Source of the DNA: Dehalococcoidia bacterium | Lineage (GTDB): Bacteria; Chloroflexota; Dehalococcoidia; SHYD01 | DNA length: 58,597 nt | Assembly: GCA_009692945.1 (NCBI GenBank) | Contig: SHYD01000001.1 | Span: 77,898-136,494, forward strand | Direction: 5' to 3' | Shown: one piece after another, positions 28,573 to 46,019 of the stretch | How the letters are laid out: each line of letters starts with the position of its first letter | Numbering within the stretch: the stretch's first letter is position 1 | Notes under the pieces: model-generated | What the model saw: only the letters and a program-made list of their open reading frames with translations | The model's database searches: none | Told to the model about the DNA's origin: nothing | Made by a program: the position numbers and the translations under genes

Positions 28573-31500
28573 CTACCAACCGTTCAAGCCACGGTTCGCC
28601 CCAAGCCGCTCTCGCTCCACCACCAACCGTTGCTTGATCAGAGCATAGACCTGCCGGGCCAACAGGTCGACATTCGGGGCCGAGGCTGCCTCTGCCTGCG
28701 GCCCACTCACTTCGTTCGTCACCATCCCGGGATAGGAACCGGGAGCCACCGCCTGAACCCCTGTGCGGCCGGTGGCGGCCAGGGCAACATCGCTCCGGCC
28801 CAATGGTGGCAGGGTCATCGGCCCAGCTGCCGTCGCGGCGGGTGAAGGTCCGGAACTCATGCCAGAAAGGGACGGGAAGCCGGACCGAAACGCGCCGCTG
28901 GCGGTCGCCCCGCCAGGCCCCAGATCGAAGCTGCTCATGGCAGTGGCCGGCGACGAGACGCCGGCGCCCTGGCCTGCGAACTCGAGTGCGGGGCCCTGGG
29001 GCCACCCCTCCACCTCAAATACGTCGATCCTGACCTGGGCTGCCGCCATTCCAAGGCCGGTCATCGCAGCTGGTCCCATCGCGTCCCTACCGGGCATGGC
29101 CAGAGCCACAGGTCTCAGATCGGTCATCTGGGGACCGCGGGGCAAGAACGGGGACGCGGCTACCGGGGAATCGGTGGGCCGGTGATCCGAAAACGCCGCC
29201 GGGGGCAGCAGGAGCCGGAGTTGCCCGGGCCTGTGAGCGATGGGGACCGCGCCGTTCAACCATGGCAGGTCTGCTAGGGAAACCGGCCCTTGCGGACCAC
29301 CGACGCTGAGCACGCCCGCTTCCATGGCCAGGTCCGGCTCGAACCTCGATGCCGGAACCGGTTCCCCTCGTACCCACTCGATGTGCAGTCCCCGCTCCTC
29401 GAGTTGGCGGATCAGCCCGGGATCGAGGTCCCCAGGCTCTGGGACAGGCGCTGGGGCCTCCCCGGCGACCCAGTCAAGGATTATCCGGACCGGCTCCACC
29501 GGGCCAGGGCGGCTATCAAGTCCCGCTGCACCCTCCAACGAACCTGCCATGGTTGCGCCCGGACGTAGCAGGAACCGCATCCCCGCGGGGCTCTCGGATC
29601 TCACCACAGCCCCCTCCAGAATGCCGAGGGCGCCCAGTGAGACCGGCCCATGGGGGCCTCGCACCGTTAACTCAGCGGCCCTCCGTCCGTGGTCCGAGGC
29701 CCTCGCTCCCAACGTCACCTCGATGCCACGTTCCAGGATTACGGGAAGTCCCGCTCGTTCCAGGCGGGCGAGCGCCGCTTGGATGCCCTCCCAAACGTTC
29801 GGGGTCGCCCAGGGGTCGTGACCACGGACCCAATCCAGCGTTAGGCGGACCGGTTCCGGCCGCACCGGCTCTGCTTCGGGGCCGAGGGAGAGTCCGCCGC
29901 CGTCGCGGCCCTCGGCCCGGTCTGTCCCAGCGCTCGCCGGGAAACCCGGTGAGAGTGGTCCGGTTGCTGACGGACGGTTCTCAGTCATCCAACGGCCCAG
30001 TTGCTCCCGGCCCGCTCCCTCCGTGGCCCAGGTGGACGCCATCGGGGTATCAAATTTAAGGGGCAACAGGTCGGACAAGACCGATACCGGCGAAGCGGCG
30101 CCACCCGCAGCGCCGGGCGACAGGCCAAACCCGGTTTGCTCAGCGGCGATCTGCTCCTCCGCGGCCCCGGCGAGCGCCCCCAGCCAATGCTGCTGAATGC
30201 CGGCGTCTGGCGATGCACCGGGCATGTTCAATCCCGCATCGCCGTGGTCCGCCTCAATCGGCGCTCCCGCGGTTCCGAGGAGGATTCCCAACCACTGCTG
30301 AATGCCGAGGTATGGGAGCGCACCGGCCCGGCCCGAACCGGCGTCGCCGGCTTGCCCCTCCGTCTTGTCTTCCTCGATTCCGGCGAGCGCCCCCGGCCAA
30401 TGCTGCCGAATACCGGCGTCTGGTGGTACGCCGGGCCCGCCCGATACGGCCTCGCCGGGGTCCGCCTCCACCCGAGCTCCCGCGATTCCAGGGAGGATTC
30501 CCAGCCACTGCTGCTGAAGACCAACATGCGGCCACGTTCCGGCCATGGCCGATCTGGCGTTGCCAGCGGTAGGGGCGCCCTGTACCGCCGGTGTTGGGAT
30601 CCCGACAAAGTCCATACCCAAATGGGCAGATGACGCCGCTCCGAGGTGAGCGATTGAGAATGGCTCAATCGCTTCCGCGCTGACTCGATCCCCCGATTGA
30701 ACCTCCTGCGCATCTCCTCGTTGCTGCCCGCCGGCGGTGGGAGGCCCGGGGGATTGATCAGCGCCGGCCAGCACCTGAACCGCCCCGGGGCGGTGGGCGA
30801 TGAGACCGGAGCGCTGCAACAACTCCACCCCACTCAATGGCGCCGGGCCGGACTCACCCAGGAGGATCAACCCAGAGGCCGGACCGCCCAGGCCAGGGGA
30901 CACGGCGGACTCACGCCCCCGTTCAAGTTCAACCCGCAGGCCGAACTGTTCCAATCGCCGCAGGGAGCGCCGGGTCTCGGCCAACTGCTCCGGGTGCTGC
31001 CAGGGGTCGTGCCCAGCCACCCAATCGACGGTAATGCGGACTGGCTCAAGGGAACCGGTGCGCCCGCCAGCGTTGGGTGGCTGCCTCTCCTCCGCCACGG
31101 GGGCTTGGGGCGCACCGGTAGCCGCGCCGCCATGCTGCGCGCTCGAAGCCATTCCAGCGTCACTTCCGCCGCCCGCTGCGTCAGCGGGCGTGCCTCCTGC
31201 GGGCCTGGCTGCCGGTGCGGCGTCGGTTTGTACGAGGTCCATTGTCAGCGGATCTCCCGCGCCGCGCAGCGGCGACCAAACCGCTGCGCCATCGTGCCAA
31301 TCCCATCGAGGAGCGGTTTGCAGGTTCCCAAGGTTAAGGATGGCGGGCCCCGGATCAGCGGCGCCGCCGGAATCCAATACCTCGCTCATTGCGGCTGCGT
31401 GGGGGAAATCGACATCTCGGTGTGTCAATAGCGCCGGTGCGCCCCCCGCGATTGCCGGACCCGGCAGCCACCGCCAGCCGGCGGTCTCACCTGGTTCGAA

Positions 31501-34263
31501 CGGGGCGCCAATCCCGGCGCCAGAAGAGGAGCGCGGGCGGCGGGAGGCCGGGGAGCCGGTTGCAGCGGGAACCCGGGAAACTTCGCCAGAGAACGACCCG
31601 GCGTCGCCCCGGATGGGGGCGATACCGGGTGGAGAGGACGGGGTGGCGGCATCCGGCGACGGGCCTTCCTGAGGCTCAAAGGCAAGCGCCCCGGGCGTCG
31701 CCCCGATTGGCCCGGCTGGGACGGAGTTCGGGGGATCCGGCATGGGGCCTCGTTGCTCCGGGCCGGAATCCCCGGACATAGCGGCCGCCTCGCCATCCCC
31801 TTCAGACGTAAAGACGAAGGGGTCCTGGACGAAGGGCGTATCCGTGGGATAGCCACCCGGTGGCAGCACCACCTGGAGCAAGCCCGGTCGGTCGCCGATG
31901 ACCATCACGGCATCGCCAAAGCCGCCCAGGTCCAAGGCCACCGGGCCCGCGGCGGTCATTACCCGGAGCGCCCCAGCCGGGTGCGCCGCTCCGGGATCGA
32001 ATTGCGCCACAGAAACGCCCCGGCCGGGAGCCAGGCGCAGATGGATCCCCTGAACCCGCAGGGCCTCAACCAACCGGTCCGCTCGCTCGGGAAACCCGGG
32101 TGTCTGCCAGGGATCGCTGCCGGCAACCCAGTCCATCACGAGCACGATCTCTTCCCGTGCCGCGCGGGCGCCCGCCGGTTCCGGGGCGCTGAGGGGAGGT
32201 TCAGTGAGCGGCTGATCGGTGGCGCCCGGTCCCGCAGGTGTTCCGGGGCCTGGCCTGGCCCCGGATTCGCCGCCCGCCGCCACCGCACCCCAGTCCGCTG
32301 CCCATGGCTCCACGGCGGCCGTGGCAGATGTCGCCGCCTCTTCCGATCCGGGGGGTGACGTCAGATTAAATGGCTCGATGGAGGGAGGACCCGATGGCTC
32401 CGTAGCGTCCTGGGGGGCGATGGACGGACCGCGAGCCGCTGGAACCCGTCCCACCGTGGCTGCGGCGGTCGAGCTTCCCCCGCCCTCATTCGGCCCCTCC
32501 GGGGTCGCCGCCGGTGCAAACGTCATTCCGGATGTCGAACTAGGGCCGCCTGTTGCTGGACCAGGCTCTGGGGCGCCACTCCCAGCGCCCACAGGGGTGG
32601 CGGTGGAGGTTGTGGTGGGTGCACTGCCAGATTCTGGCCTCGTAATTGCCGGTGGCGGGTGCCCAGGCTCGTTCGGTCCGGCGCCGAGGAGGTCCGGAAA
32701 CGGCGGAGCTGAGAGCTCCGTGCCGCCCGGGGGAAAGGAGCCCGGTACGTCATCCGCCCTTGTCACGGCGTAAACCGGGCCCATCCTTATGAGAGCGGGA
32801 CCCACCGTTGCAGGCGGGGCGGGCCCAGCCGTGGGAGCAGAAGGCAGCATCGCCGGCGCGGGGGGCGACGCCGCCGGTGGCCCACCGATTGGCGTGGCCT
32901 GCGGTCCGGCGACAGAGGCTCCCGGCGGTTCTTGCCTCGATCCCGAGGCGCTGACCCCAGGGGAACCCGCTTGTTCCACTCTGGACGGCAAGGGTTCCTT
33001 TTGCTCGGGGGCCGGGCTCCCCATCGGCCCCGCCTGGCCCCTCGGAGCGTCGACCGGCGCGCTCGGACTCTCAGGCAGGACCAGGTCGAAGGCCGGCGAC
33101 ATTGGCGCATCGAACGCCTGATGCAAACTGCCGGGGCGATCCCCAGATGGAACGCTTGCGGGAACGGGTCCCCGGGGCGGCGCACCCCGCTGGGCAACCA
33201 CCGATTGAGCCAGCGGTACCGGCCTGGAGATGGAAATGGCTGGGCTGGGTTGGAAGGGCGACTCGGAGCCGCCCAGGCCGCCTTCCGGCGTACGCTCCGC
33301 CGGTGTGGCCGGACGCGCCGTTCCCGGCGGCGCTGGGGTCCGTACACCCGCAACACCCTCGGCGTCGTCAGCCGAGAACCCCTCCCCGGACCCGGACCTT
33401 TGGCGGACCTGCGGCTCAGTCGAAGGCGAATGTGCCGTGTTCCCCTCACGGTCTGATGTCAGCAGGGGCAGGCCGGGAAGGGGATACCCCACCCCGGCAG
33501 CCGCGGTTCCGCTCAGCCAGTCGAGCCAGTTGGTGGTCCGGACCGCGTGCCCTTCGAGCAGCTCGGGAATCCCGCCCAGGGCGCCGGCCATCCGCAGCCT
33601 CGGCTGGGATGCCGTCGCGGGAAAGAACGCCGTCGCTGCCCCGCCGGCGGCGCGCTGGGCGGCCCGGAACGGGGCAACGTGCGCTCCGTCCCGGGCCCCA
33701 CGGTTCGCGACGACCGATCGAGCCAGCGACCGGGGGCGGGCGCCGGCGGTGCCGGAAACCGGCGACCCCGCAGCTCCCGGCGCTGCGGGGGACGCTTCAA
33801 AGGTTGGACCGTGCTCTGAGGCGGGTGTCGCTCGATCGCCAGGCCGGGCCTGGGTGCGCCGCGCGGCCCGCACCCCAGCCCAAAGGTCAAGGGGGTCGCC
33901 CGAACTGGCCACGGCCTCGACCGCGTCGTCTTCGTCCCATGCGACGAAGGGCATGTCCAGCGGGGAATAGTGGTCCCCACCCCCGTCATCGAGGGCTAGC
34001 CAGTCGAGCCAGCCCAGTCCCCGCTGAGCGATTTCGCCGAGGAAATCGAGGGTGCCGGCCAGACCGGCCGTCAACTCGGCCGACCGCTGGGACAATCGCT
34101 CGGCGACGGTGGGGGCCGCCACCCTGGAGGCGATGGTTGCGGCGAACCCCCGCCGTGCCGTTAGCGCCGGGTCACCGGACAGTTCTAGCGCGGCTGCGCC
34201 GTCGGCCGGGAGGTGGCTTTGCCGGCTCGGTGGGGACGCCTGGCCCCCCTCGGGCTCAGCCAT
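28573..34263 (-). CDS. Giant Pro/Ala/Gly-rich eCIS-associated protein (1896 aa)
   Basis: Single ORF co-oriented inside the operon; four ~90-aa repeats; C-terminal helix VDLLARQVYALIKQRLVVERERLG. Confidence 0.8.
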   Translation of the reverse strand: MAEPEGGQASPPSRQSHLPADGAAALELSGDPALTARRGFAATIASRVAAPTVAERLSQRSAELTAGLAGTLDFLGEIAQRGLGWLDWLALDDGGGDHYSPLDMPFVAWDEDDAVEAVASSGDPLDLWAGVRAARRTQARPGDRATPASEHGPTFEASPAAPGAAGSPVSGTAGARPRSLARSVVANRGARDGAHVAPFRAAQRAAGGAATAFFPATASQPRLRMAGALGGIPELLEGHAVRTTNWLDWLSGTAAAGVGYPLPGLPLLTSDREGNTAHSPSTEPQVRQRSGSGEGFSADDAEGVAGVRTPAPPGTARPATPAERTPEGGLGGSESPFQPSPAISISRPVPLAQSVVAQRGAPPRGPVPASVPSGDRPGSLHQAFDAPMSPAFDLVLPESPSAPVDAPRGQAGPMGSPAPEQKEPLPSRVEQAGSPGVSASGSRQEPPGASVAGPQATPIGGPPAASPPAPAMLPSAPTAGPAPPATVGPALIRMGPVYAVTRADDVPGSFPPGGTELSAPPFPDLLGAGPNEPGHPPPAITRPESGSAPTTTSTATPVGAGSGAPEPGPATGGPSSTSGMTFAPAATPEGPNEGGGSSTAAATVGRVPAARGPSIAPQDATEPSGPPSIEPFNLTSPPGSEEAATSATAAVEPWAADWGAVAAGGESGARPGPGTPAGPGATDQPLTEPPLSAPEPAGARAAREEIVLVMDWVAGSDPWQTPGFPERADRLVEALRVQGIHLRLAPGRGVSVAQFDPGAAHPAGALRVMTAAGPVALDLGGFGDAVMVIGDRPGLLQVVLPPGGYPTDTPFVQDPFVFTSEGDGEAAAMSGDSGPEQRGPMPDPPNSVPAGPIGATPGALAFEPQEGPSPDAATPSSPPGIAPIRGDAGSFSGEVSRVPAATGSPASRRPRSSSGAGIGAPFEPGETAGWRWLPGPAIAGGAPALLTHRDVDFPHAAAMSEVLDSGGAADPGPAILNLGNLQTAPRWDWHDGAAVWSPLRGAGDPLTMDLVQTDAAPAARPAGGTPADAAGGGSDAGMASSAQHGGAATGAPQAPVAEERQPPNAGGRTGSLEPVRITVDWVAGHDPWQHPEQLAETRRSLRRLEQFGLRVELERGRESAVSPGLGGPASGLILLGESGPAPLSGVELLQRSGLIAHRPGAVQVLAGADQSPGPPTAGGQQRGDAQEVQSGDRVSAEAIEPFSIAHLGAASSAHLGMDFVGIPTPAVQGAPTAGNARSAMAGTWPHVGLQQQWLGILPGIAGARVEADPGEAVSGGPGVPPDAGIRQHWPGALAGIEEDKTEGQAGDAGSGRAGALPYLGIQQWLGILLGTAGAPIEADHGDAGLNMPGASPDAGIQQHWLGALAGAAEEQIAAEQTGFGLSPGAAGGAASPVSVLSDLLPLKFDTPMASTWATEGAGREQLGRWMTENRPSATGPLSPGFPASAGTDRAEGRDGGGLSLGPEAEPVRPEPVRLTLDWVRGHDPWATPNVWEGIQAALARLERAGLPVILERGIEVTLGARASDHGRRAAELTVRGPHGPVSLGALGILEGAVVRSESPAGMRFLLRPGATMAGSLEGAAGLDSRPGPVEPVRIILDWVAGEAPAPVPEPGDLDPGLIRQLEERGLHIEWVRGEPVPASRFEPDLAMEAGVLSVGGPQGPVSLADLPWLNGAVPIAHRPGQLRLLLPPAAFSDHRPTDSPVAASPFLPRGPQMTDLRPVALAMPGRDAMGPAAMTGLGMAAAQVRIDVFEVEGWPQGPALEFAGQGAGVSSPATAMSSFDLGPGGATASGAFRSGFPSLSGMSSGPSPAATAAGPMTLPPLGRSDVALAATGRTGVQAVAPGSYPGMVTNEVSGPQAEAASAPNVDLLARQVYALIKQRLVVERERLGANRGLNGW

Positions 34264-34294: not shown

Positions 34295-34765
34295 CTACCG
34301 GACAGCCTTATTGATACGCCAGCCGCTGTGGGCCAACTCCAAGGCTTCCACCGCGATCCCGTTGCCATCGGCTCGAAAGTCAGGACCGGTCCATTTGACG
34401 GGGAAGGCTTTTTCCAGGTCCCACGAGAACCGGCTGTCGGTCGTGCTGACACCCCGGTTCGGGAACGCCAGGATCGAAACCGGCTTGGTCTCAAGCTTGC
34501 CCTCAATAATCTTCAGGTACCAGCTCCACAGTTCATCCGTTGCGGTCCAGCCACGTTTGAGGACGATGTTGTTCCATTTGGTGGTCTTGATCAGCTGCCG
34601 CATCCCGGAGTTGTAGCCACCCTCCTTGAACGACTCCACCTCCGTCTGAACGGTGAGGCCGGTGCATTCGGTGAACGACGCAACGGCGATCCCGTTGATC
34701 TCCACCCAGAACTTGCCCTGGCTGAAGGGGTCCACCAAGCGCCCACCGGCCGGTTGCGACGTCAA
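34295..34765 (-). CDS. Tail tube protein 2 (T4 gp19-like)
   Basis: FTECTGL, KEGGYN, NIVLKRG, AFPVKWTGPDF, IAVEALELAHSG; TTG start overlaps the upstream stop. Confidence 0.9.
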   Translation of the reverse strand: MTSQPAGGRLVDPFSQGKFWVEINGIAVASFTECTGLTVQTEVESFKEGGYNSGMRQLIKTTKWNNIVLKRGWTATDELWSWYLKIIEGKLETKPVSILAFPNRGVSTTDSRFSWDLEKAFPVKWTGPDFRADGNGIAVEALELAHSGWRINKAVR

Positions 34766-35739
34766 CGCTGTCCCGCCTGCGACCGGACCGCCTGAGCGAT
34801 GGCCCCGGCCCACCTTGCGGCGGCCTGCTCATCGGATAGTCCGGCGAGGTCCATGCTCAGGGCTACCCGAACCTCGGCGAGTTCCGAGAATCCGGCCCCG
34901 GGGGTCTCGACCGCCAGCAACTCTTCGCTGCGGGCCAGTGCCCTGATCGATATATGGTCGAGCCGGGCCCGCTCCAGCGGCGTCAGCGGGCCGCCGCCCG
35001 CGGCCGCGTAATTGCGCACAAAATGGTCCACCATGAGATGGGGCGCGGCCGGGCCGGCGCCCCGCGCCAGCACCAATGCTTCGACGGTCCGGGCCTCGCG
35101 CTCCTGATCTTCCGAGTCCGCCCGCCCCGAGTCCTCGGGCGTCGCCTCCCGAGCGGCCTGGGCGACATGGGTCAACTCATGAGCGACAAGCGCCTGCCCG
35201 CGTGGGCTGAAGGGATCGAAACGGCCTTCGGCGAAAAAGACCTCTCTCCCGATAGTGAACGCTTCCGCTCCTCGTGCCTGGGCTGCTGAATCCGCCGCAG
35301 GCCCGGTGTGAAGCCGCACGTCCTCCAGGTTGCGCCCGGGTCCGTCCAGCACTGCGCCGGCCGCGTCCGGGAGTGCAAACCCGCCGCGGCCCATCAGTCC
35401 GGACAACTCAGTCCGGACAGCCTCGCCCTGTCCTGGGCGGTGCGGCGGGGGTGGGGCGCCCCTCCGCACCGGTTTGATAAAGGCCAAGACTTGCCCTCGG
35501 TCATCCGGCGGCAGCTTGAATGGGGCCGGCGCCGGTTCGGCCTCCTCAAGCACTCCTGGGATGCGTTGACGCAGGTCCCGCAACAAAGCCGCCGTAGTTC
35601 CGCCGCTGGAGGATTGCAGTCCGCTTGGAGGGGAGATGGCACCGGCCACTGGAACAATCAAAGAACGCGAGAGGCTGGCGAGAAACTCGTCTCCTCCGGC
35701 CGCGTCGCCCACCCCTGGCCCGCCCGCTGGTTCGCTCAT
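34762..35739 (-). CDS. DUF4157 (eCIS core domain) protein
   Basis: DVRLHTG..A..AEAFTIG.EVFF..G.FDP....GQALVAHELTHVAQ with HExxH, EREA. Confidence 0.88.
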   Translation of the reverse strand: MSEPAGGPGVGDAAGGDEFLASLSRSLIVPVAGAISPPSGLQSSSGGTTAALLRDLRQRIPGVLEEAEPAPAPFKLPPDDRGQVLAFIKPVRRGAPPPPHRPGQGEAVRTELSGLMGRGGFALPDAAGAVLDGPGRNLEDVRLHTGPAADSAAQARGAEAFTIGREVFFAEGRFDPFSPRGQALVAHELTHVAQAAREATPEDSGRADSEDQEREARTVEALVLARGAGPAAPHLMVDHFVRNYAAAGGGPLTPLERARLDHISIRALARSEELLAVETPGAGFSELAEVRVALSMDLAGLSDEQAAARWAGAIAQAVRSQAGQR

Positions 35740-35749
35740 CGTGGGGTTT

Positions 35750-36034
35750 TCACTCCCGTTCCAAGGCAATGGTCAGCTCGTCGCGCATGAGCCGGTATAC
35801 CCGGTCTGTGAGGGCGCGCAGGACGGCGGCTTCGTCGGAGGCCGGACGGGGTGACGGAGATTGGCCTGAAGTGCCACCGGATACGGGTTCGGACGGTTCG
35901 GGCGGCGCCACGTGGGCGAGGGATTCTGGCGCGGGGACGGCGAGTGCCGCTGGTGAAATGAGTTCGAGGGTGGGTGCCGCGTTTCCGCGTTCGACGGAAA
36001 CATAGCTTACCAAGGTGCCAATGCGGACCGGCAT
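35750..36034 (-). CDS. Small eCIS protein with conserved C-terminal helix
   Basis: MPVRIGTL start 1 nt after the upstream stop; C-terminal LRALTDRVYRLMRDELTIALERE. Confidence 0.75.
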   Translation of the reverse strand: MPVRIGTLVSYVSVERGNAAPTLELISPAALAVPAPESLAHVAPPEPSEPVSGGTSGQSPSPRPASDEAAVLRALTDRVYRLMRDELTIALERE

Positions 36035-36035
36035 G

Positions 36036-36203
36036 CTAGCGCCCGCTGCTGATCTGGCGGTTGATGCTGCCGATCTCCTCGACCCAGCGCCTCCGGTCTC
36101 CGTGCTCCATCATCAGGATGTCCTCTGACGGCCAGTGGAAGTGGTATGCGATGTAGGCTACCTCCTGGTAGAGGCGTTCCAAAGGGTAGCCTACGATCCC
36201 CCC
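36036..36203 (-). CDS. DUF6760-like ORF, probable -1 frameshift extension of the tail assembly chaperone (not in ORF track)
   Basis: Hand translation GGIVGYPLERLYQEVAYIAYHFHWPSEDILMMEHGDRRRWVEEIGSINRQISSGR*; no ATG/GTG before the conserved core. Confidence 0.82.
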   Translation of the reverse strand, partial: GGIVGYPLERLYQEVAYIAYHFHWPSEDILMMEHGDRRRWVEEIGSINRQISSGR

Positions 36204-36571
36204 ATGGCGGCCACCGTATCAACCTCGAACTTGTGGCTGCACTCCGGACAAGTGGCCGTGATGGCGGTGCTGGCGTTTTCGTTGATGCGCCGGTAAAACG
36301 TCTGCAGGTAGGAGAGGTCGGTGGAGAAGATGTCCTCGATGACCGAAGGGTTCACGTCCGAAACAGAGCCCAGTTTCGTGATCACCCGTGATAGCAGGAT
36401 GATGGTGAGGTACGCTTGGTTTTGGCGCACCCTTGGGTCCCGCAGCGGCGCGATCTCGTCCATAGCAGTAGCGAGGCGCATAACGCCTCGCTTGTGCAGA
36501 TTGCCCTCACGGTCGACAAAACCCCGCGGGAGCACGAATTCAAAGTCGGTCTGGAGCTTCTCCATCAGCAC
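36191..36571 (-). CDS. Tail assembly chaperone-like eCIS protein
   Basis: FEFVLPRGFVD, GVMRLATAMDE, LLSRVITKLG, DLSYLQTFYRRIN, CPEC; directly follows the tube gene. Confidence 0.82.
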   Translation of the reverse strand: MLMEKLQTDFEFVLPRGFVDREGNLHKRGVMRLATAMDEIAPLRDPRVRQNQAYLTIILLSRVITKLGSVSDVNPSVIEDIFSTDLSYLQTFYRRINENASTAITATCPECSHKFEVDTVAAMGGS

Positions 36572-36612
36572 GGTCCTGTGGGTCCAACGCTACCGTCACG
36601 GCTGGCCCGATC

Positions 36613-37062
36613 TTATCCGGTCGCTCGCTCCAAGCCCTCGTGGACGATCTCGATCTCCTCGATGATCACCTCGTTGCCCTGGGCGTTCACGCCGGACGCG
36701 GTCCATTTGCTCGGCCATCCCCGCACAAAGTTGTAACGGATCACCTCGGCCCCGTCCTCGTTGTAGGCGACGACCGACCCGTTGATACGGGCATCCTCGA
36801 TCTTCCCTTGGATAACCTTCTGCCGCCAGGCCCACAGGTCGGTGTTGTCGGTGATGCCGCGTTTCAGGTTGATGTTCTGCCATTTCAACAGACCGGGCAT
36901 CTTGTGGATCATGGTGACCCCTTTGGGCCCCGCCTGCTTGTATTCAATGACATCGTTTTCGGAACCGAATCCGGAAGCCTCGCGGAAAAACGCCTCGGTT
37001 ACGCCCTTGACTTCAAGGGCGAACGCAAATCCCTGAATTGGATCCATTGGCCGGTCAGCCAT
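36613..37062 (-). CDS. Major tail tube protein (T4 gp19-like, Afp1)
   Basis: KMPGLLKWQNINLKRGIT, GWPSKW, IEEIEIVHEGLER. Confidence 0.93.
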   Translation of the reverse strand: MADRPMDPIQGFAFALEVKGVTEAFFREASGFGSENDVIEYKQAGPKGVTMIHKMPGLLKWQNINLKRGITDNTDLWAWRQKVIQGKIEDARINGSVVAYNEDGAEVIRYNFVRGWPSKWTASGVNAQGNEVIIEEIEIVHEGLERATG

Positions 37063-37105: not shown

Positions 37106-38635
37106 CTATCCGCCGGTCGCCAGTTGCTGCACTCGGAACACCACGAATTCAGCCGGTTTCACCGGGCACATCCCGATCTCGCACACCACCATGCCCGCGT
37201 CGATCTGGTCCGGCGGATTGGTCTCGGCGTCACACTTCACGTAGAACGCCTGGTCCTGAGTTGCGCCGAATAATGCGCCGTTGCGGTACGGCCCCATGAG
37301 GAACTGGGTGATGTCCCGCTTGAGCCGCTGCCACAGGCCGAAGTCGTTCGGTTCGAACACGGCCCAATTGGTGCCACCCTTGATGGAGGCCTCCACGTAG
37401 TTGAAGAAGCGGCGGACGTTGATGTACTTCCAAGAGGCGTCGGTGATGGCGAGGGTGCGGGCGCCCCACACCCGGATACCCATTGCGCCGAAGGCGCGGA
37501 TGCAGTTGACCCCGATGGGGTTAAGCGTCCCCTGCTCGCCGGCGGTGATGTCTTGCGTCAACTCGACGGCACCCCGCACCACCTCGTTGGCCGGCGCCTT
37601 GTGGACGCCTCGCTCGGTGTCGGTGCGGGCCCAGATGCCGGCCATGTGGCCGCTCGGCGGCACCGACATCAACTTGCCATCGGGCCCCAGCACCCGAATC
37701 CAGGGGTAGTAGAGGGTGGCAAAGGGCGAGTCCACCATCAGTTTCTGTTCCCGCCACTCCTTGACCTCCTGGGGGTCGAGGCCGAGGGGCGAGTCGATGA
37801 TGCACACCCGGTTCCGCATCAGTTCGCAGTGGTCGACCATCGCCTTCTGGAGGGCGATGAGCGCCTCTTCTTCGATGAGGCCGCGCTGGTAGGCGCTCAT
37901 CAAGTCCGGAGCGCAGACGATGGTCACGTTCTCCACCGCCTCTAGTCCCGCGATCCCGGAGCGGCTTCTCAGGTCGCCCTGGACCTGGGTGGTGTCCAAG
38001 CGCAAATCGCCAGCGGCCGGCGCCGCAAGGGCATAGGACCCTTCGGTCGGGGCCGGGAGCAGGGGCGCTTTGCCCATCGGGATATCGAGCCAGACGTAGG
38101 TCGATGTCCCGTTGACCACGGTCTCGACGAAGCGGGGGCTCTCCCGGTTCATGGTCACGTTGGCGAAGGACTCCACCGCCTTGCCGCCTGCCTTCACCGA
38201 CACGGTGAACATCGGGGCTGCGGGGTCGGCCGGCAGGTTGTCATCCCCACCCTTGGCGGGTCCGATATCCACCGAGACGCTGGCGGCCGCTAGGCCGTCT
38301 TTGATGGCGTAGGCTTCCAGGGCGGGTTTGTCGCCCTCAGCCGCGGGGACCTGTACCCGGGGCGCAAGGGGCGAGGCCACATTGACGATGTAACAGACGC
38401 CGCCGCCGTTGTTGAAATACCCGTACACCGCGTGCCCGAGGTAGTACTCCTTGCGGATCCCACCGAACTTCTGCTGGAACTGGGACCAATTGGTCACCAG
38501 CACCGGTTTGTTGCGAGGGCCCATTTCGGCGAACCCGATGAACGCCGCTACCGACGTCCCCACCCCTTCGATAGGCCTGCCGGCCGAAGGCAGCTCCTCA
38601 ACGTAGACTCCAGGCGTTAGATACGAAGGCGCCAT
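37106..38635 (-). CDS. Contractile tail sheath protein
   Basis: YLTPGVYVEE, YYPWI, PPSGHMAGIWARTD.ERGVHKAPANE, RVWGARTL, VFEPND, PVKPAEFVVFR; ATG 38635 with AAGGAG RBS. Confidence 0.96.
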   Translation of the reverse strand: MAPSYLTPGVYVEELPSAGRPIEGVGTSVAAFIGFAEMGPRNKPVLVTNWSQFQQKFGGIRKEYYLGHAVYGYFNNGGGVCYIVNVASPLAPRVQVPAAEGDKPALEAYAIKDGLAAASVSVDIGPAKGGDDNLPADPAAPMFTVSVKAGGKAVESFANVTMNRESPRFVETVVNGTSTYVWLDIPMGKAPLLPAPTEGSYALAAPAAGDLRLDTTQVQGDLRSRSGIAGLEAVENVTIVCAPDLMSAYQRGLIEEEALIALQKAMVDHCELMRNRVCIIDSPLGLDPQEVKEWREQKLMVDSPFATLYYPWIRVLGPDGKLMSVPPSGHMAGIWARTDTERGVHKAPANEVVRGAVELTQDITAGEQGTLNPIGVNCIRAFGAMGIRVWGARTLAITDASWKYINVRRFFNYVEASIKGGTNWAVFEPNDFGLWQRLKRDITQFLMGPYRNGALFGATQDQAFYVKCDAETNPPDQIDAGMVVCEIGMCPVKPAEFVVFRVQQLATGG

Positions 38636-38731
38636 GTGGTGCAACTCCTTCTGAAGACTTGACCGCCGAAGATGACGCGATCACGCGTCCAGCCGCGGGG
38701 CGACCGGCCCCACCATGCCTCAACCGGGTAG

Positions 38732-38793: not shown

Positions 38794-39624
38794 TCACAAC
38801 TCGAGGATGACGTCCTCCCCCGGTATCGTCACGCTCACCTTGGCCTCCGTCCGGTCCTGCGCCCGCAACACGAGAACCGCGCTGCCCCGCCTGGGCGCGG
38901 GCAATCGGAACCAACCCTGCTCGTCGGTGGTGGTGCGGGCGCCGGTCTCCTCCACCATCACCACCACGCCCGGCAGTCCTTCAACGACGTTGTCCCGGTT
39001 CCGCACCCAGCCCCTCACGTCGAATCCGGAGCGGGCATCATCCGGCGTGATCTGCCGAATGCCTATCTGCGGCGCCCTGAGCACCAGCGGCGCCTGGTAT
39101 GCCACCTCAGGATCCAACACGAGGGTCACCACGTAGGTGAGACCGGGACGGACCCGGTTCTCAAGCCCCTGCCAGAGGTCGGCGAAATTGGACGGCATCT
39201 GATCCGGCTGCGCCACCGAGGTGGTTACCGGTCCCGGTTGGTCAACCAGTCCACCCCTCAGCAGGTCACGCGGCAACGGGTTGCTCTTCACCAGCGCCGC
39301 CAGCACTCTCCAGAGCAGCCGGTGCTCATCCTCCGGCGCTCGGGCCCAGGTGGTCACTTGGTAGGTGGCGTCGATGCGCAGGGGGGCACGCTGCCTGCTA
39401 CCCAGGTTGTTTTCTCCGCTCCTCTTGACTTCCCACCCCACCGTCCGCATTTTGAGGTTCTCCCGGAGGTCGAACAGGAAACAATTGACGGCGGGCCGGG
39501 TGAGCCGGCCGGACCAATCCCGGTCAGGAGTATCGAAGGCCAGCTCGACTTCGGTGGGGTCGAGCGGAACGGTGCGCACCAGCAACTCGCGGATGGTGTC
39601 GTCCAGGTCAGCCAGCACGGTCAT
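38794..39624 (-). CDS. DUF4255 (Pvc16/Afp16 cap) protein with C-terminal carboxypeptidase-regulatory-like domain
   Basis: LAFDTPDRDW, VNCFLFDLREN, YQVTTW...EDEHRLL, RPGLTYVVT; C-terminal TTTDEQGWF. Confidence 0.88.
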   Translation of the reverse strand: MTVLADLDDTIRELLVRTVPLDPTEVELAFDTPDRDWSGRLTRPAVNCFLFDLRENLKMRTVGWEVKRSGENNLGSRQRAPLRIDATYQVTTWARAPEDEHRLLWRVLAALVKSNPLPRDLLRGGLVDQPGPVTTSVAQPDQMPSNFADLWQGLENRVRPGLTYVVTLVLDPEVAYQAPLVLRAPQIGIRQITPDDARSGFDVRGWVRNRDNVVEGLPGVVVMVEETGARTTTDEQGWFRLPAPRRGSAVLVLRAQDRTEAKVSVTIPGEDVILEL

Positions 39625-41756
39625 GACTCCAACAGAAGCGAATAGTACGGCTCAAAATCGTTCTGTGCCACCAGTTTCCCCAACTTTTGATATTCCCGGC
39701 GAGTACCTCGGATGAGGTGCCGCATCGCGATCCGGTCGCCTTCCTCCGCGGCCAGGAAGGCCCCGGTCAGGCAGATATTGCGGATGTGGCCGCCTGCCAG
39801 CCGGAACTTCCGCGCCAGGAAGGGCAGGTCCACATCCCCGTCCAGCGGCGCCTCGTTGGGCAGCGAGCCGCGCCAGATGCGGAGCCGCTCCGCTTCCTCA
39901 GGCATCGGGAACTCGATCACAAAGTCCAAGCGACGCAGGAAAGCATCGTCAAGATTGCCCCGTAGGTTCGTGGTCAGCACCGCCACCCCGTTGTAGCCCT
40001 CCAGCCGCTGGAGCAGATAAGCCGTCTCCACGTTGGCGTAACGGTCGTGGGCATCCCGCACCTCGGATCGCTTTCCGAACAGGGCGTCGGCCTCATCGAA
40101 CAGCAGGACGGCGTCGCCCTTCTCGGCAGCGCCGAATATGGCGTCCAGGTTCTTCTCCGTCTCACCAATATATTTGCTGACGATGGACGCCAGATCGATG
40201 CGGAACAGTTCGAGGCCGAGCACGCCCGCGATGATCTCCGCCGCCATCGTCTTGCCGGTGCCGGGTTGCCCAACGAACAGGGCGGTCAAACCGCTGCGCC
40301 CGGCCACGGCCCGGCCGAATCCCCAGGTCTCCAGCACCCGCAGTTGGTGGCGGGCCCTGGCCGCGATCTCGCGCAACTGCGCCAAGGCATCGCCCGGCAG
40401 GACGATATCGTCCCAGCCGTGACGCGGCTCCACGCGCCGGGCCAGTCCGTTCATGGGCGGGGCGCTGATGGCGCGGGCCGCCGCTCGCAGTTCAGACATC
40501 CCGGCCTGGTCCTCACCGGCAAATTGAGCACGGAGGCCGCCGGCCGCGGCGACTGATTCGATGCTTTCCTGGTCCAGATTGTACCGGTTAGCGAGTTCCA
40601 CCACTCCATCGGACCCTATCGGACCGCTCAACACCGATTGCCACATCCTCAACCGTTGTTCCAACGCCAACGGCGCCAGTTCCAATCGGATGGAAGGGAC
40701 CGAGGCGATCCAGGTGCTGGGCTCCCAACGCGCCTCACCCAGCAGCAGCGTCGGGCGAATTCTGCGGACCAGGTCACGATGCAGTTGCGACATCAATTGC
40801 GCATGGCCGGCCTTGTCCGGGGTGAACAGCACGTCGAACTCGTCGAATGCTAAGACCGCATCCTGCAGGGTAGCCTCCTGCACCAGCAGATGAACGTTTC
40901 TGGCGAGATTGCCCGCGGCCAGGAGATCCGAGACGCGGGCGACCAGGAGCGAGACCCCGGCCTGAAGGCAGGCCGCGCGCGCGGCGGCCAGGCGGGCAGG
41001 CCCGGTTTGGCCATGGAGGTACACCACGGGAGAAGCCGAGCCGGTCTGTTGAGCCCCAACCAGGTGAACCAGCCCCTCGACCAACGCCTGGTTGAGGCCG
41101 AGGGCTGGCGGTGGTGGTTCTGGTTCTGTCCGGTAGAACGAGGCGAAACCAGTGAGCCTCCCATCGATCCGGTCGGAACCGAGCAGGAATTCGGACACCC
41201 GATCATCCAGTTTCAACGGCCGGCTCAGGAAGGGTAGCCGTTCCGCCGATTCTTCGGCCAGCGTCACGATACCCGAGGCCAGCAGCGAACCCTGGAGCCC
41301 TAACCGCACCCTTGCTTCGACCCGGTCGGCCAACCCCGGGGCCAGCAATTGCAGCACCAGGTTTGCGGTGGGACGGCGGCGGGACACATCGTCCTGGAGA
41401 TAGCCATACAGCCGCTCATAACGAATGTCCAGTTCCGGCGCCAGGATAATGAGCACCGCTTCCTGCTCGAAAGCATCCAGACCCCACTGCGCCGCCAAGT
41501 GCTGGAGGCGTTCCGGTATGACCGCTGGGGCCAACTCCAACAGCTTCCGTGCTTCCCAGGGCTGCGGAGTTTCGGCAAGCAGCGCGTCAATCTCGCCGTC
41601 TGAGATGTACAGTCCGCGCAGGGGGTCCGCCGCCCGTGCCGCTATCTCGTCCCGCAGCCCTTCGACCGCGATCCGAAGGCGGAGGTCGAGCCGCAGGAGG
41701 GCTCGCCGCAGCATATCAAAAGACGCTGTTGCCAACGGGGCGCCGGCGGTTTCCAT
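39621..41756 (-). CDS. AAA+ ATPase (Afp15-like)
   Basis: YGYLQDDVSRRRPT, GQPGTGKT, SKYIGETEKNL, LLFDEADALFGKRSEVRDAHDRYAN. Confidence 0.94.
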   Translation of the reverse strand: METAGAPLATASFDMLRRALLRLDLRLRIAVEGLRDEIAARAADPLRGLYISDGEIDALLAETPQPWEARKLLELAPAVIPERLQHLAAQWGLDAFEQEAVLIILAPELDIRYERLYGYLQDDVSRRRPTANLVLQLLAPGLADRVEARVRLGLQGSLLASGIVTLAEESAERLPFLSRPLKLDDRVSEFLLGSDRIDGRLTGFASFYRTEPEPPPPALGLNQALVEGLVHLVGAQQTGSASPVVYLHGQTGPARLAAARAACLQAGVSLLVARVSDLLAAGNLARNVHLLVQEATLQDAVLAFDEFDVLFTPDKAGHAQLMSQLHRDLVRRIRPTLLLGEARWEPSTWIASVPSIRLELAPLALEQRLRMWQSVLSGPIGSDGVVELANRYNLDQESIESVAAAGGLRAQFAGEDQAGMSELRAAARAISAPPMNGLARRVEPRHGWDDIVLPGDALAQLREIAARARHQLRVLETWGFGRAVAGRSGLTALFVGQPGTGKTMAAEIIAGVLGLELFRIDLASIVSKYIGETEKNLDAIFGAAEKGDAVLLFDEADALFGKRSEVRDAHDRYANVETAYLLQRLEGYNGVAVLTTNLRGNLDDAFLRRLDFVIEFPMPEEAERLRIWRGSLPNEAPLDGDVDLPFLARKFRLAGGHIRNICLTGAFLAAEEGDRIAMRHLIRGTRREYQKLGKLVAQNDFEPYYSLLLES

Positions 41757-41831: not shown

Positions 41832-42815
41832 TCATTCGGCTTCTTCGACGGTGTCCATCGCTTCCATCGCTTCGACCGCTTCGACCGGACCCGTCCCGCC
41901 GAGCACCGCCTGGATGCCGGGCAGGTAGGTGTCGAATTGCGTCGCGTTGTGGGTCACGAGTTGCTTGAGCATCGGCGGACTCAATTTTTCGCCCGCCGTA
42001 TCCAGGCTGGTGCGGTAACGAACCTCACCGTCTTCGCAGTCCATCTCGAAATTGCCGATTCGCAGACCATAGTTGGCGCGGGTGAGGAACTCGGCCATCG
42101 GCGGGCGCCGTGCGGCCGGCACCTCACCGGTGAGATACGAGAACACCATGCATTGATTGAGCCCCTCCTCCGCCATGATGACCGCAAGCCACTCCCCATT
42201 GTCACCCTTCAGCGGTACACGCACCGCGCTGCCGGCTTCTACCACCTCGTATGGCCACCCGCTGTCCTTGGCAAACGTGACAATCACGTCGAACATCTCA
42301 CCTGCTCCGTTCTCATCCCTCGCCAGGCCCGCATCGTGCGGCGCGGGGTTGGCCCAGATAGTGCTGTAGCCCTGCTTGACGGCGCCTCCCGCCAACTCTG
42401 GGGGAAGCGGCACCTCTTGGACCACCTGGAGCGCGATCCAACTCTCCGACTTCAAGAGGACGTGGGGTCGTTTGCTGGCGGCCAGGCCCTGCAGCCACGA
42501 CTGCACTTCCTCGGGTGTGGAATCGTGCCCGGTCAAGAGGTGTTGTGCGTCCGCTGCCAACCGCGCTTCCACTTCTATGAGACGGGCTGGGTTGAAGGCG
42601 ATGTTCCCCCCGTTGCGCCTGACCTCGGGGGCCAGCCGGAACAAGCCCTCAGCATCGATGCGCCTGTAGGCAGCATCGTCCACCGTGAAAACCGCACGGC
42701 ACTCGCTCAGGCGGTCCCCGGATCGTCGCAGCTTGACCCTGGACACCCCCACCGGAAGCCCCATACCAGAGGGCGTCTGCAATTCGATATTCAACGGCGC
42801 GTTGCGGCCCTGCAT
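41832..42815 (-). CDS. YbjN domain-containing protein
   Basis: C-terminal MAEFLTRANYGLRIGNFEMD.EDGEVRYRTS is YbjN-like. Confidence 0.75.
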   Translation of the reverse strand: MQGRNAPLNIELQTPSGMGLPVGVSRVKLRRSGDRLSECRAVFTVDDAAYRRIDAEGLFRLAPEVRRNGGNIAFNPARLIEVEARLAADAQHLLTGHDSTPEEVQSWLQGLAASKRPHVLLKSESWIALQVVQEVPLPPELAGGAVKQGYSTIWANPAPHDAGLARDENGAGEMFDVIVTFAKDSGWPYEVVEAGSAVRVPLKGDNGEWLAVIMAEEGLNQCMVFSYLTGEVPAARRPPMAEFLTRANYGLRIGNFEMDCEDGEVRYRTSLDTAGEKLSPPMLKQLVTHNATQFDTYLPGIQAVLGGTGPVEAVEAMEAMDTVEEAE

Positions 42816-42836: not shown

Positions 42837-44876
42837 CTACGAAGGCCACTTCTTGATCACTTTACCCTGTTCAAAAGTTGCGGTGAGCACCGGCGTCTCA
42901 ATACCCCGGGATTGTTTCGCGGTGAGCTTGACCTCCCACGACTTGAGCTTCCCTCCCGCCTCGGTGAGAGTCACCGACGCCTCGATCCCGATGGCGGAAG
43001 TCCGTGAGGTTTCGACCTCCTTGCTTGGGTCAAACTTCTCGAACTTGATCTGAGGGTCGCTCTTGACGGCAGTTTTGACGGTGTCTACCATCGACGCAAA
43101 ATCTCCCACCATGTTCGCTCCGGTGGCCGCCGCGTTGGGGTCCTCCTCAGCGGCGGATTCGGCCTTTTCTGCCAACAGCGGTGTCATGCGGGTCGCCATA
43201 TTGCCAATATAGGCGACGAGTGCCGACCCGGCGCCACCGCCCCCCAATTCCAACAGATTGAACATGGCGCTGGCGCTGATTTCCAGTTCCCGTTCTTCCG
43301 ATCCGATTGTGTATTCCGCCGACCCCGAGAACGGCCCGAACTCGGCCTCGAACCCAAGCACGCCCTCCATTTTGGTCTGACCCGACGACTTGCGCGCGCC
43401 CCGGGCCTTGGGCATCCGCAGCGCCGCCAGTTCCTTCACCGACAGTTCATCCAGCTTCTTGCCGCCGGTCTGTTTGTGGATGGACGCCTCGACAGACTCC
43501 TTGTTGTACTCGGTGAAATGCCGCGCCTTGGCAGACCCGCCCAATTTGCCACCCGTCACACCACCCTCTGCCTTGATCGATGCATAGGCGCCCCTCCGGA
43601 CAAACCGCTCGCGGTCGTCGGTGCCCTTCGCCAGAACGCCCTTTTCAACCTTGGACGCCCAGCGCTCAGCGAGCTTGTAGCCCTGCCGGGACATGGTGCC
43701 GCCCCACATATAACTGGCCACCTCCCGCGGCAGCACGGAGGACTCCCGGAACTTCTGATACATGGCATAGGAGATGAGTTTCATCACCTCGACACCGGAC
43801 CCACCCTTGGCCTCGATGAAGCCGCCGAGTTCGCCCTGGAGTTTGGCCACGCCGATCGAACCACCGGCCGTCACTCCCAGTTCATTGCCGACCTCGACAT
43901 CGTTTTTATCGTCCTTTTCCGCGCTCATGGTGAGATGGAACCCTATCTCTACACCCGAGGGCGGGATCGGGATGGCCAGATCGAACTCGAACTCGGCAGT
44001 GGTGTCCGGCTGAGGTACGGCCAGGTCGATCAGACCCGCCAACCGCTCCGACGCTTGTTTGAAGTCTCCGGTCAGTTTGTCCTGGACCTTTTTGGTCTTG
44101 GCGTCCGGGGCCACCACCGCGGCCTGCTGCCCTTCCGGGAACTTGACCGCCTCCAGTTTGGCCTTCTCGGCCAGGGCCATCGACTCGAGGTTCTTGACCC
44201 CAGGTGTCCGTTTCGCCACCGCATCGGACGTTCCGTCGGCGTTCTCCTCCCGCCACTGTGCTGTTACGTCCAGTATCTCTTCGAGCACCGCCACCAGCGT
44301 GTCCCGCTGGCTGGAGTTTTCCGGAGGAGCGGTGAGGCCGTGGTACTCGTCCAGCCACTGGTCGATCTCGGTCAGGGTCCCGCCCCGCACGCTGGTGCGG
44401 TCCACATAGGTTGCTGCAGAGAACGTTTCGGCCGTGATCAGCCGCTGGACGGCCGGTGCCTCAGGATAGATAAGCCGGATATTTTCGTTGCCGCGGGCGG
44501 GGTCCGGCAAAGCAAGCCTCGCCAGCTTGGGAAGCGCCACCGAACGGGCTCGACTCGGCGCAGTCGCAGCAGCCGAGGATTGGGAACGGGGACTTACTCC
44601 CCCCGGAACGCCCGCGCCAACACGGGCGACACCGCCGGTCTGCGCCATGCGCTGCAACGTCTGGTTTCCCAGCGTGCGCTGTAACGCCAGGATGGCTGGA
44701 GAGGATATTCCCCGTCCTACGGCCATGGCCGTTTGCAGTGAGGCTACCGCAATCGCAGGACCCATGGCGCCGGCTTCCGGAAACCTTGCCTCGGCCTCGG
44801 TCTGGGAGACCGTCGCCGGGCGTGGCGCCGGGTCTTTATCCGAACGCTGGCTGCGAAGTTGAGAATTCTTTGCCAC
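42837..44876 (-). CDS. Putative eCIS cargo/effector protein
   Basis: ILALQRTLGNQTLQRM and PAVQR leader motifs followed by unrecognised domains; start uncertain (GTG 44876 behind GAGGAG; frame open to 44969). Confidence 0.65.
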   Translation of the reverse strand: MAKNSQLRSQRSDKDPAPRPATVSQTEAEARFPEAGAMGPAIAVASLQTAMAVGRGISSPAILALQRTLGNQTLQRMAQTGGVARVGAGVPGGVSPRSQSSAAATAPSRARSVALPKLARLALPDPARGNENIRLIYPEAPAVQRLITAETFSAATYVDRTSVRGGTLTEIDQWLDEYHGLTAPPENSSQRDTLVAVLEEILDVTAQWREENADGTSDAVAKRTPGVKNLESMALAEKAKLEAVKFPEGQQAAVVAPDAKTKKVQDKLTGDFKQASERLAGLIDLAVPQPDTTAEFEFDLAIPIPPSGVEIGFHLTMSAEKDDKNDVEVGNELGVTAGGSIGVAKLQGELGGFIEAKGGSGVEVMKLISYAMYQKFRESSVLPREVASYMWGGTMSRQGYKLAERWASKVEKGVLAKGTDDRERFVRRGAYASIKAEGGVTGGKLGGSAKARHFTEYNKESVEASIHKQTGGKKLDELSVKELAALRMPKARGARKSSGQTKMEGVLGFEAEFGPFSGSAEYTIGSEERELEISASAMFNLLELGGGGAGSALVAYIGNMATRMTPLLAEKAESAAEEDPNAAATGANMVGDFASMVDTVKTAVKSDPQIKFEKFDPSKEVETSRTSAIGIEASVTLTEAGGKLKSWEVKLTAKQSRGIETPVLTATFEQGKVIKKWPS

Positions 44877-45001
44877 GCTTCTCCTCACCGATTCCTCCCG
44901 CCGCCCGCTCCAATGGGCGACGATCTGGGACAAATTACCCCAACCCATCATCCCAACAGGCTGGGCCAACGGGGTGATCCCGCGTCGGTTTGGCCTTCGA
45001 G

Positions 45002-45817: not shown

Positions 45818-45876
45818 TTGAGGGGCCTCCCTTAACTCCAAGGCGTTGTCTTGGGTGCACTCCAAGGCATCCCGGA

Positions 45877-45908
45877 ACGGTAGCATTGGCCGGTTAATAT
45901 TTGGTTAT
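45877..45908 (-). promoter_or_regulatory. Effector/ATPase-operon promoter: two TAACC repeats at 11-bp period plus extended -10
   Basis: GGTTA on + strand at 45892 and 45903; minus-strand TGcTACCGT at 45885-45877. Confidence 0.65.
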
Positions 45909-45925: not shown

Positions 45926-45955
45926 TTGACGCAGGCACAAGCCGTCCGCTATGCT
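45926..45955 (+). promoter_or_regulatory. Sigma-70-type promoter of the FHA-SARP-kinase operon
   Basis: TTGACG-18 nt-TATGCT. Confidence 0.6.
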
Positions 45956-46019
45956 TAACCGCGTTCGGCGGACTCTGGAGAGGGCGATCCGAGCTAACCG
46001 GCTGCGGAGGTCAGATCGA

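Follow-up and report, generated by a model that had tools for sequence, protein, structure and literature searches.

Is the small DUF6760 gene behind a tail assembly chaperone gene a gene at all, or is it the end of a longer chaperone that ribosomes reach by slipping back one base? The question is raised by a stretch of 58,597 nucleotides (nt) from a draft genome of a Dehalococcoidia bacterium (contig SHYD01000001.1, positions 77,898 to 136,494; the whole stretch is called the window below, and all coordinates are positions in it). Open reading frame (ORF) calls and Pfam matches place a phage-tail-like injection-system locus on its minus strand. An earlier note on this DNA had proposed a programmed -1 ribosomal frameshift in the chaperone gene of this extracellular contractile injection system (eCIS). 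Judging from sequence comparison, the window site is very probably a real programmed -1 frameshift site, and the two ORFs would encode a chaperone and its DUF6760 frameshift extension.

The chaperone/DUF6760 junction

The elements of the junction are as follows.

36191..36571, minus strand: tail assembly chaperone, 0-frame ORF of 126 codons from GTG 36571, stop TAG 36193-36191 (PHROG 508)
36219..36221, minus strand: TGA closing the -1 frame upstream, five codons before the G-run
36205-36203, minus strand: ATG in the chaperone frame
36203-36198, minus strand: run of six G (G6)
36203-36197, minus strand: heptamer G GGG GGA
36036..36197, minus strand: -1-frame extension, 53 codons plus TAG, DUF6760 or P2 E'-like domain IVGYPLERLYQEVAYIAYHFHW... 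(PF20546, 3e-14)
36153..36194, minus strand: stem-loop 3' of the slip site, made up of a GGCUACC/GGUAGCC core, an inner helix and a loop of 10 nt

On the minus strand the junction reads ...GCC GCC ATG GGG GGA TCG TAG (36205-36191 for ATG to TAG). The G-run begins at codon position 3 of the chaperone frame, which places the slippery heptamer G GGG GGA in phase. The 0-frame product has 126 amino acids (aa) from GTG 36571 and the C-terminus ...VAAMGGS*. The -1 frame is open from 36218 to 36039, reading YGGRHGGIVGYPLERLYQEVAYIAYHFHW...SSGR*, and closes with TAG 36038-36036, one base ahead of ATG 36034; GGG at 36203 to this stop makes 55 codons. The frame matches PF20546 (DUF6760) with 53.3 bits against a gathering cut-off of 27. 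It contains no ATG or GTG before the conserved core, its sole canonical start being TTG 36182-36180 (ORF 36036..36182, 48 aa). Every coordinate and count of this arrangement in the earlier note, the DUF6760-like character of the -1 frame, the TGA upstream and the absence of ATG and GTG before the core proved correct. The product sizes given there, about 126 and 178 aa, hold for a start at GTG 36571. By the sequence alone, ATG 36565, two codons into the ORF and preceded by AGGA at about 9 nt, may be the real chaperone start, and the products would then measure 124 and 176 aa.

The earlier note had named a seventh G, lost through an assembly error, as a reason to abandon the frameshift. A contig from another sample of the same study (run X2) spans 36063-36492 with 0 differences and 0 gaps, and thus reproduces the G6 run exactly. 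The comparison was made with assembled contigs, not raw reads, and those of runs X3, X4 and X5 gave no coverage of the G-run of the window organism.

Reading frame and slip sites across loci

The junction was compared across loci of several samples. In the same phylum, a six-frame PF20546 search was positive in 34 of 401 genomes, and 30 loci were taken. In a wider sample, a pattern scan with one genome per species found at least 594 confirmed chaperone relatives; the best 80 were kept, and the first 110 loci are these 30 and 80. The wider sample covers bacteria of the Chloroflexota, Myxococcota, Acidobacteriota, Cyanobacteria, Bacillota, Actinomycetota, Planctomycetota and Nitrospirota, of Desulfobacterota-type lineages and of Proteobacteria-labelled genomes, together with eight archaeal genomes (Methanosarcina, Methanosaeta, two Methanosarcinales, ANME-2, Halobacteria, Hydrothermarchaeota and Methanobacteriota). 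Sampling via DUF6760 itself gave 25 loci from 22 of 401 genomes for Actinomycetota and 8 loci from 8 of 401 for Bacillota. For the pooled census, 143 loci were reduced by seven anchor-pattern failures (L013, L027, L042, L047, L049, L055, L106), by L127, which has no chaperone hit, and by the duplicates L116 and L140, leaving 133 unique loci. They come from independent assemblies, complete chromosomes among them. Two loci from genomes flagged as unpublished (L010 and L119, genomes G227 and G552) are included in the tallies and in alignments A1, A2, A3 and A5; no claim depends on them.

All 30 same-phylum loci have a chaperone homologue directly upstream (52-84% identity), with DUF6760 in its -1 frame. 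The same frame was found in 79 of the 80 loci from other phyla and archaea, hence in 109 of the first 110, and in 130 of the 133 unique loci of the pool. Both frames are conserved as protein.

An in-phase slippery motif (X XXY YYZ or NNG GGG G) lies within the overlap in 123 of the 130 -1-frame loci, against a background of 50 in 14446 codon positions (0.35%) in the chaperone body. The alignment of junctions that the earlier note had suggested as a check thus came out in favour of its proposal. Among the 123 motifs, GGGGGAA is the commonest form (59), followed by GGGGGGG (27), GGGGGGA (18) and GGGGGAG (6), and L087 has G GGA AAA. All eight archaeal loci carry G GGG GAA or GGA, five of them without a possible start codon. 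In the Actinomycetota, G GGG GAA, GGA or GGG stands at the usual place in 18 of 25 loci (by eye). Seven of the eight Bacillota loci have an in-phase heptamer, namely T TTT TTA (two), T TTT TTG (one), A AAT TTT (two) and G GGG GAA or GAG (two); the eighth, from Brevibacillus, reads GGAGGGAG followed by ATG, and has no slippery motif.

The position of the motif is equally regular. A run of 5-7 G starting from the third codon position (NNG GGG G) is present in 29 of the 30 same-phylum loci, with identical phase in 29 of 29. The stop follows within 0-2 codons, save for L015, whose stop comes six codons further on. The one locus without a G-run is L003; it has an inserted linker, an in-phase C CCT TTA and a GTG. 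Among the first 110 loci, 102 have an in-phase run of at least five G (L089 also, by eye), which is exactly five G long in 55. The run starts 15 nt before a conserved Tyr of the extension in 87 of the 110. The 0-frame stop lies 8 or 5 nt before this Tyr in 93 of the 110; in the others it reaches as far as 37 nt past it, not counting L003 and the in-frame L035.

A conserved stem-loop downstream of the slip site

In the window, the stem core begins 5 nt after the heptamer, a spacing within the usual range for a frameshift stimulator. The hairpin reaches -26.5 kcal/mol (z -3.27), and none of 200 dinucleotide shuffles was as stable. About 27 of the first 30 loci have a hairpin of -16 to -31 kcal/mol 3-7 nt after the G-run. 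As a control, the 19 DUF6760 codons around the stem were recoded with synonymous codons drawn from each locus's own usage. The native mean was -21.2 kcal/mol, compared with -12.75 kcal/mol after recoding (mean z -2.7); at most 10 of 200 recodings matched the native sequence in 85 of 109 loci, and none did in 46.

Codon choice in the stem arms is correspondingly narrow. In 86 loci, the synonymous codons there are GGC in 45 of 45 cases, TAC in 81 of 85, CCC in 62 of 71, and GAG in 61 of 65 and 84 of 86. The Val codon GTA occurs in 63 of 74 cases in the stem and in 8 of 71 at a later Val, and for later Tyr, His and Glu codons (14, 27, 28) the top codon makes up only 52-61%. Across 69 sequences, 86.5% of cells of the GGCUACC...GGUAGCC stem pair, against 31-55% when the partners are slid, and 0 of 500 shuffles reach the observed covariation. 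Double changes occur at position pairs 36-49 (CG 30, GC 15, UG 5) and 30-55 (CG 64, UA 3, UG 1; Val-to-Ile), and also at 37-48 and 25-60. Fifteen sequences, mostly of actinobacterial type, have a second type of stem, a 15-bp GACGUACGCGA...UCGCGUACGUC at the same place in another register, in which 91.1% of cells pair and two pairs show double changes. We rejected the idea that the two types are covariation of one stem, since their registers differ; they are alternative stems at one place. L033 and L046 belong to neither group and were omitted from the pair counts. Rfam contained no family for 35800-36800 at E up to 1. The conservation of this stem-loop exceeds what is needed to preserve the protein sequence.

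Relation to E and E' of phage P2

PF20546 matches all 49 aligned DUF6760 homologues. By hhalign, DUF6760 matches the E' extension of phage P2 with 93.4% probability (E 2.4e-7), pairing G-IVGYP with GAVTFP and FHWP with FHWP. DUF6760 members fall into phrog_10636 (23 of 49) and phrog_1756 (12 of 49), and the P2 E' extension itself falls into phrog_1756 (1.4e-28) and phrog_10636 (2.2e-5). Because of this match and the PHROGs in common, we regard DUF6760 as the counterpart of P2 E'. The Pfam family Phage_P2_GpE (PF06528) weakly matches 20 of the 49 members (best E 0.0015), all below the curated cut-off. The P2 record annotates gpE+E' as sharing the gpE amino terminus via a -1 frameshift at 19685, where the slip site reads GGT TTT TTG (heptamer T TTT TTG).

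The chaperone was assigned through PHROG 508, annotated as tail assembly chaperone, which matched 28 of 28 homologues (best E 1e-9; window protein 1.2e-5). No Pfam family matched it above threshold, and there were weak zinc-ribbon Pfam matches to its C-terminal CPxC motif. An AlphaFold2 model from a 28-sequence alignment had a mean predicted local distance difference test (pLDDT) score of 61.9 and a predicted template modelling (pTM) score of 0.31, too poor for comparison. Neither the chaperone nor DUF6760 is related by sequence to any solved structure, DUF6760 having 0 Protein Data Bank (PDB) matches at E up to 1.

The locus thus resembles P2 gpE/gpE+E' in its place after sheath and tube genes, in a short form and a -1-shifted long form that part near the end of the first ORF, and in the homologous extension; the P2 heptamer T TTT TTG is also used by Bacillota. 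It differs in the chaperone body, which belongs to PHROG 508 and carries the CPxC motif, while P2 gpE belongs to phrog_103, and in the slip site, which in most lineages is a G-run placed where the conserved extension begins, with a strong stem-loop behind it. The setting differs as well, being not a phage but an injection system whose locus encodes an AAA ATPase and a Pvc16-type cap. Taken together, the census, the stem-loop and the P2 E' homology support the claim that this small gene is a frameshift extension, and we therefore consider that the locus keeps the phage gpE/gpE+E' type of recoding.

Separate genes and other explanations

If the layout is so regular, could DUF6760 still be a small gene of its own, initiated independently or by re-start after TAG 36191, with the G-run as ribosome-binding site and TTG 36182 or ATC 36197 as start? 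We consider this unlikely. GGGGGG is able to pair with the anti-Shine-Dalgarno sequence, and TTG 36182 exists, but it lies 14 nt from the G-run and would drop the conserved GYP residues, as the earlier note had pointed out. Nor is it conserved: Leu occupies its position in 55 of 86 aligned loci, encoded by CTC, CTG, CTT or CTA in 53, which leaves at most 2 with TTG. Directly behind the G-run stands a variable codon (ATC 34, ATA 19, GTA 13, GTC 9, others), not a conserved start. In 52 of the first 110 loci, the open -1 frame contains no ATG, GTG or TTG ahead of the conserved Tyr; in 26 such a start occurs only at least 42 nt upstream, within the chaperone coding region, and in 32 within 18 nt. 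For the 52 start-less loci the next in-frame start, if any, is mostly 60-105 nt into the conserved domain, and L019, L047 (a locus cut short) and L084 have no start downstream in the ORF either. The Bacillota heptamers T TTT TTA/G and A AAT TTT cannot be ribosome-binding sites. Moreover, measured from the conserved core, the 0-frame stop shifts across 45 nt and the G-run mostly keeps its place, which is not how stop-start coupling would behave, and the homologous P2 E' is annotated as a frameshift-only product. Separate genes clearly do exist in a minority of lineages. A canonical start within 18 nt was found in 8 of 10 motif-less loci and in 43 of 123 motif-bearing ones, so that the two solutions are largely alternatives. 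In an actinobacterial group (L124, L127, L128, L130, L132, L133, L134), the chaperone is shorter and lacks the CPxC end, and DUF6760 has its own ATG or GTG; four of these loci have ATGA overlaps, two have DUF6760 in the same frame after the stop, and one is on a short contig without a chaperone hit. In this divergent subclade, a separate gene appears to have taken the place of frameshifting.

Slippage of RNA polymerase on G6, adding a G to some transcripts that would then encode the fusion in one frame, would give the same protein product, and 102 of 110 loci do have a homopolymer run. Runs of five G, found in half of the loci, are nevertheless short for transcriptional slippage, the non-homopolymeric G GGA AAA, C CCT TTA and A AAT TTT are classical tandem-tRNA sites, and a conserved structure lies downstream, as in ribosomal frameshifting; we regard this explanation as very improbable. 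An assembly error or a decaying gene, the true sequence being a single in-frame gene or a pseudogene, is hardly credible. The genome is indeed a metagenome-assembled draft (99 contigs, 81% complete), but the -1 layout recurs in nearly all unique loci from independent assemblies, the contig from the other sample reproduces the junction exactly, and the conservation of both frames as protein speaks against decay.

A number of observations weigh against a programmed frameshift as the general explanation. The 43 motif-bearing loci just mentioned have ATG or GTG 3-18 nt before the Tyr, mostly a GTG overlapping TGA and often in a GTGA or ATGA overlap; the G-run in them resembles a ribosome-binding site, and separate initiation is conceivable there. 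Seven of the 25 actinobacterial loci and Brevibacillus have their own start and no slippery motif, the Brevibacillus start being clearly an ATG, as in part of the actinobacterial subclade; the DUF6760 domain can therefore work as a separate protein. We found no clean in-frame natural chaperone-DUF6760 fusion, and each of the six longer DUF6760 proteins in a database of 5.8 billion clusters is a singleton whose upstream part is scrambled. In about 24 of 109 loci (L017, L087, L089, L107, L092, L094 and others), synonymous recodings do as well as the native stem-loop. After T/A-rich or other non-G heptamers the stems are weak (z -1.4 to +1.6 in 10 loci, by mononucleotide shuffles), and structure is therefore not universal. 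The chaperone reaches Pfam families only below threshold (Phage_TAC_7, PF10109, in 3 of 28; Gp41_Mu in 4 of 28), and hhalign did not align its profile to P2 gpE. Since the loci are related to one another, the counts make them seem more independent than they are. Finally, the analysis establishes sequence signals, conservation and homology, and from these we infer that slipping occurs, its frequency and its role in assembly.

One candidate for a natural fusion, L035 (360-1150), has chaperone, DUF6760 and the next gene in one frame; the frame becomes irregular again about 40 codons later, and we did not count it. This locus is from a long-read metagenome bin, and its DUF6760 part leaves the family consensus after ...EHGDRQR. 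It may reflect indel errors, or be a real triple fusion.

A possible mechanism

With a programmed -1 frameshift at the window site, most ribosomes would stop at TAG 36193-36191 and release the short chaperone form, and a fraction would slip back one base on G GGG GGA. The Gly-tRNA on GGG would re-pair perfectly with the overlapping GGG, and the A-site tRNA would re-pair with GGG. The classical tandem slip should also work with GGA or GGG as the next codon. With GAA, the commonest next codon, Glu-tRNA would face GGA after the shift, and a G:U pair would be needed. The stem-loop at 36194-36153 probably aids the slip by pausing the ribosome. Continuation in the -1 frame would give a fusion ...AAMGG-IVGYPLER... 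of about 176-178 aa, with the junction peptide ...AAMGGIVGYPLER.

What would two forms be for? In the phage lambda and P2 model, the short form coats a tape-measure-like protein, the long form links it to tube subunits, and slip efficiency sets the ratio. By analogy with P2 gpE/gpE+E' and lambda gpG/gpGT, a fixed ratio of the forms may here hold a tape-measure-like protein and start tube polymerisation. The client in this locus is probably a 1896-aa protein encoded upstream of the tube initiator and spike genes.

The injection-system locus

The other genes of the locus are listed below in their order on the minus strand.

45005-45886, minus strand: DUF4157/eCIS_core protein, the first of the locus in this order
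42840-44969, minus strand: 710-aa ORF, no family assigned
41835-42815, minus strand: YbjN-domain protein
39624-41756, minus strand: AAA ATPase
38797-39624, minus strand: Pvc16-type cap
37106..38644, minus strand: sheath gene (PF04984, PF17482)
36613..37062, minus strand: tube gene, T4 gp19-like, directly 5' of the chaperone (PF06841, 2.1e-37)
35750..36034, minus strand: 94-aa ORF, the gene after DUF6760, starting 1 nt past its stop
34765-35769, minus strand: second DUF4157 protein
34298-34813, minus strand: second tube-family protein
28573..34263, minus strand: 1896-aa Ala/Gly/Pro-rich ORF, directly upstream of the tube-initiator and spike genes
27880-28542, minus strand: LysM tube initiator
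25966-27804, minus strand: VgrG-type spike

The order sheath, tube, chaperone, DUF6760, 1896-aa protein, LysM tube initiator, VgrG compares with FI, FII, E, E', T in the F operon of P2. The 1896-aa protein consists of Ala, Gly and Pro to 43%, has no hydrophobic segments, and carries four modules built around ...V(R/I)(I/L)x(L/V)DWV(A/R)GxDPW.... It had no match in Pfam, PHROG or NCBIfam. By its position, compared with that of Tme in Streptomyces davawensis, it is the candidate for a tape-measure-related client of the chaperone. The 94-aa protein gave nothing in NCBIfam or PHROGs, and a 335-aa protein gave nothing in PHROGs.

The 94-aa and 1896-aa proteins share a C-terminal motif of about 20 residues (...RVYRLMRDELTIALERE at 35753-35815 and ...RQVYALIKQRLVVERERLG at 28600-28660, both on the minus strand), which also ends the 94-aa homologue in L035 and is present in protein P0006. 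The proteins may use it as a common signal for docking or loading.

The spike gene is followed directly on its 3' side by housekeeping genes (Ham1, MoaA and an RNase H-MoaC fusion; 23109-25817, minus strand). The fusion, a single ORF (23109-24071, minus strand) joining RNase H (residues 8-131) to MoaC (178-313), is unusual. Genes for gp25-like and baseplate-J proteins are on another contig of the same genome (C33:4722-6832); either the system thus occupies two separate loci, or the draft assembly has a break at this point. Divergent neighbours at 45951-50462 (plus strand) encode a protein with an FHA domain and a Ser/Thr kinase of 1087 aa that includes a fused solute-binding domain; both may regulate the injection system.

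Known systems and significance

Tail-chaperone frameshifting is a textbook phage feature, and the mechanism itself is not new. Xu, Hendrix and Duda reportedly described it in 2004 as general for long-tailed phages, including lambda gpG/gpGT. In lambda, too, overlapping frames ahead of the tape measure gene yield two products at a set ratio. The likeness drawn here is one of logic, and the phage itself is non-contractile.

According to the accessible part of one study, GGGGGAA is the slip motif in about a thousand actinobacteriophage tail-chaperone frameshifts, and the PRFect authors propose there G:U re-pairing of the second tRNA at this site (PMC10885494). The same motif is given for corynephage phi16 in the accessible part of another (PMC5506516). 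As far as these sources go, the heptamer is identical to the one commonest in our loci; what differs is its occurrence here in loci of cellular injection systems, in archaea as well as in many phyla.

Streptomyces davawensis has a tape-measure-related effector of its injection system, Tme, which the accessible passages describe as a very large, mostly disordered protein encoded directly upstream of tube initiator and spike, as is the 1896-aa protein here (PMC11126660). A term search of that paper gave no instance of frameshift and a single one of chaperone, among its references. Our actinobacterial loci carry the chaperone/DUF6760 pair, and the giant protein of the window differs in lacking a Pfam or PHROG match. 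The spike plug Cis6/Afp6/Pvc6 (PMC8894136, PMC12210884) resembles DUF6760 in being a small protein encoded among tube and spike genes. We rejected DUF6760 as such a spike plug, since it has 0 matches to solved-structure chains at E up to 1 and nothing links the two.

In full-text searches (subscription papers and supplements lay outside them) we found, among the papers listed, no account of a tail-chaperone frameshift in contractile injection systems, and no mention of DUF6760. The available passages of papers on the Anabaena system and on a metagenome survey, and of two papers on Streptomyces, mention no chaperone gene or frameshift. Retention of the frameshift by cellular phage-tail-like injection systems thus appears to be unreported. 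We lean towards the view that the frameshifted chaperone pair is ancestral and nearly universal in one large branch of these systems, which comprises those of Chloroflexota, Actinomycetota, Myxococcota, Cyanobacteria, Bacillota, and methanogenic and halophilic archaea.

If this is true, hundreds of genes annotated as DUF6760 are mis-annotated frameshift extensions, and a giant tape-measure-related protein would be assembled with the help of a chaperone missing from the current Cis1-16 parts list. Even without this wider reading, DUF6760 gains an identity as an E'-like extension, the gene model is corrected in at least several hundred loci (at least 594 confirmed matches), and an assembly factor is added to the usual parts list of these machines. 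To our knowledge, few programmed -1 frameshifts are documented in archaea, and the eight archaeal loci would be new cases. The matter also bears on the engineering of delivery systems: the long form would be lost from constructs that treat the ORFs as separate genes or recode the G-run and stem-loop. As a source of compact natural frameshift signals, the site would further supply two stem types and at least four heptamer types from bacteria and archaea.

Contigs of other organisms in runs X2, X3 and X4, which are freshwater metagenomes, match the window over no more than the conserved 3' arm and the AYHFHW codons (36130-36172), and their loose ends run on with ...GGGGGTAGCT... (plus strand). 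Relatives that share this junction thus seem to be common in the three metagenomes.

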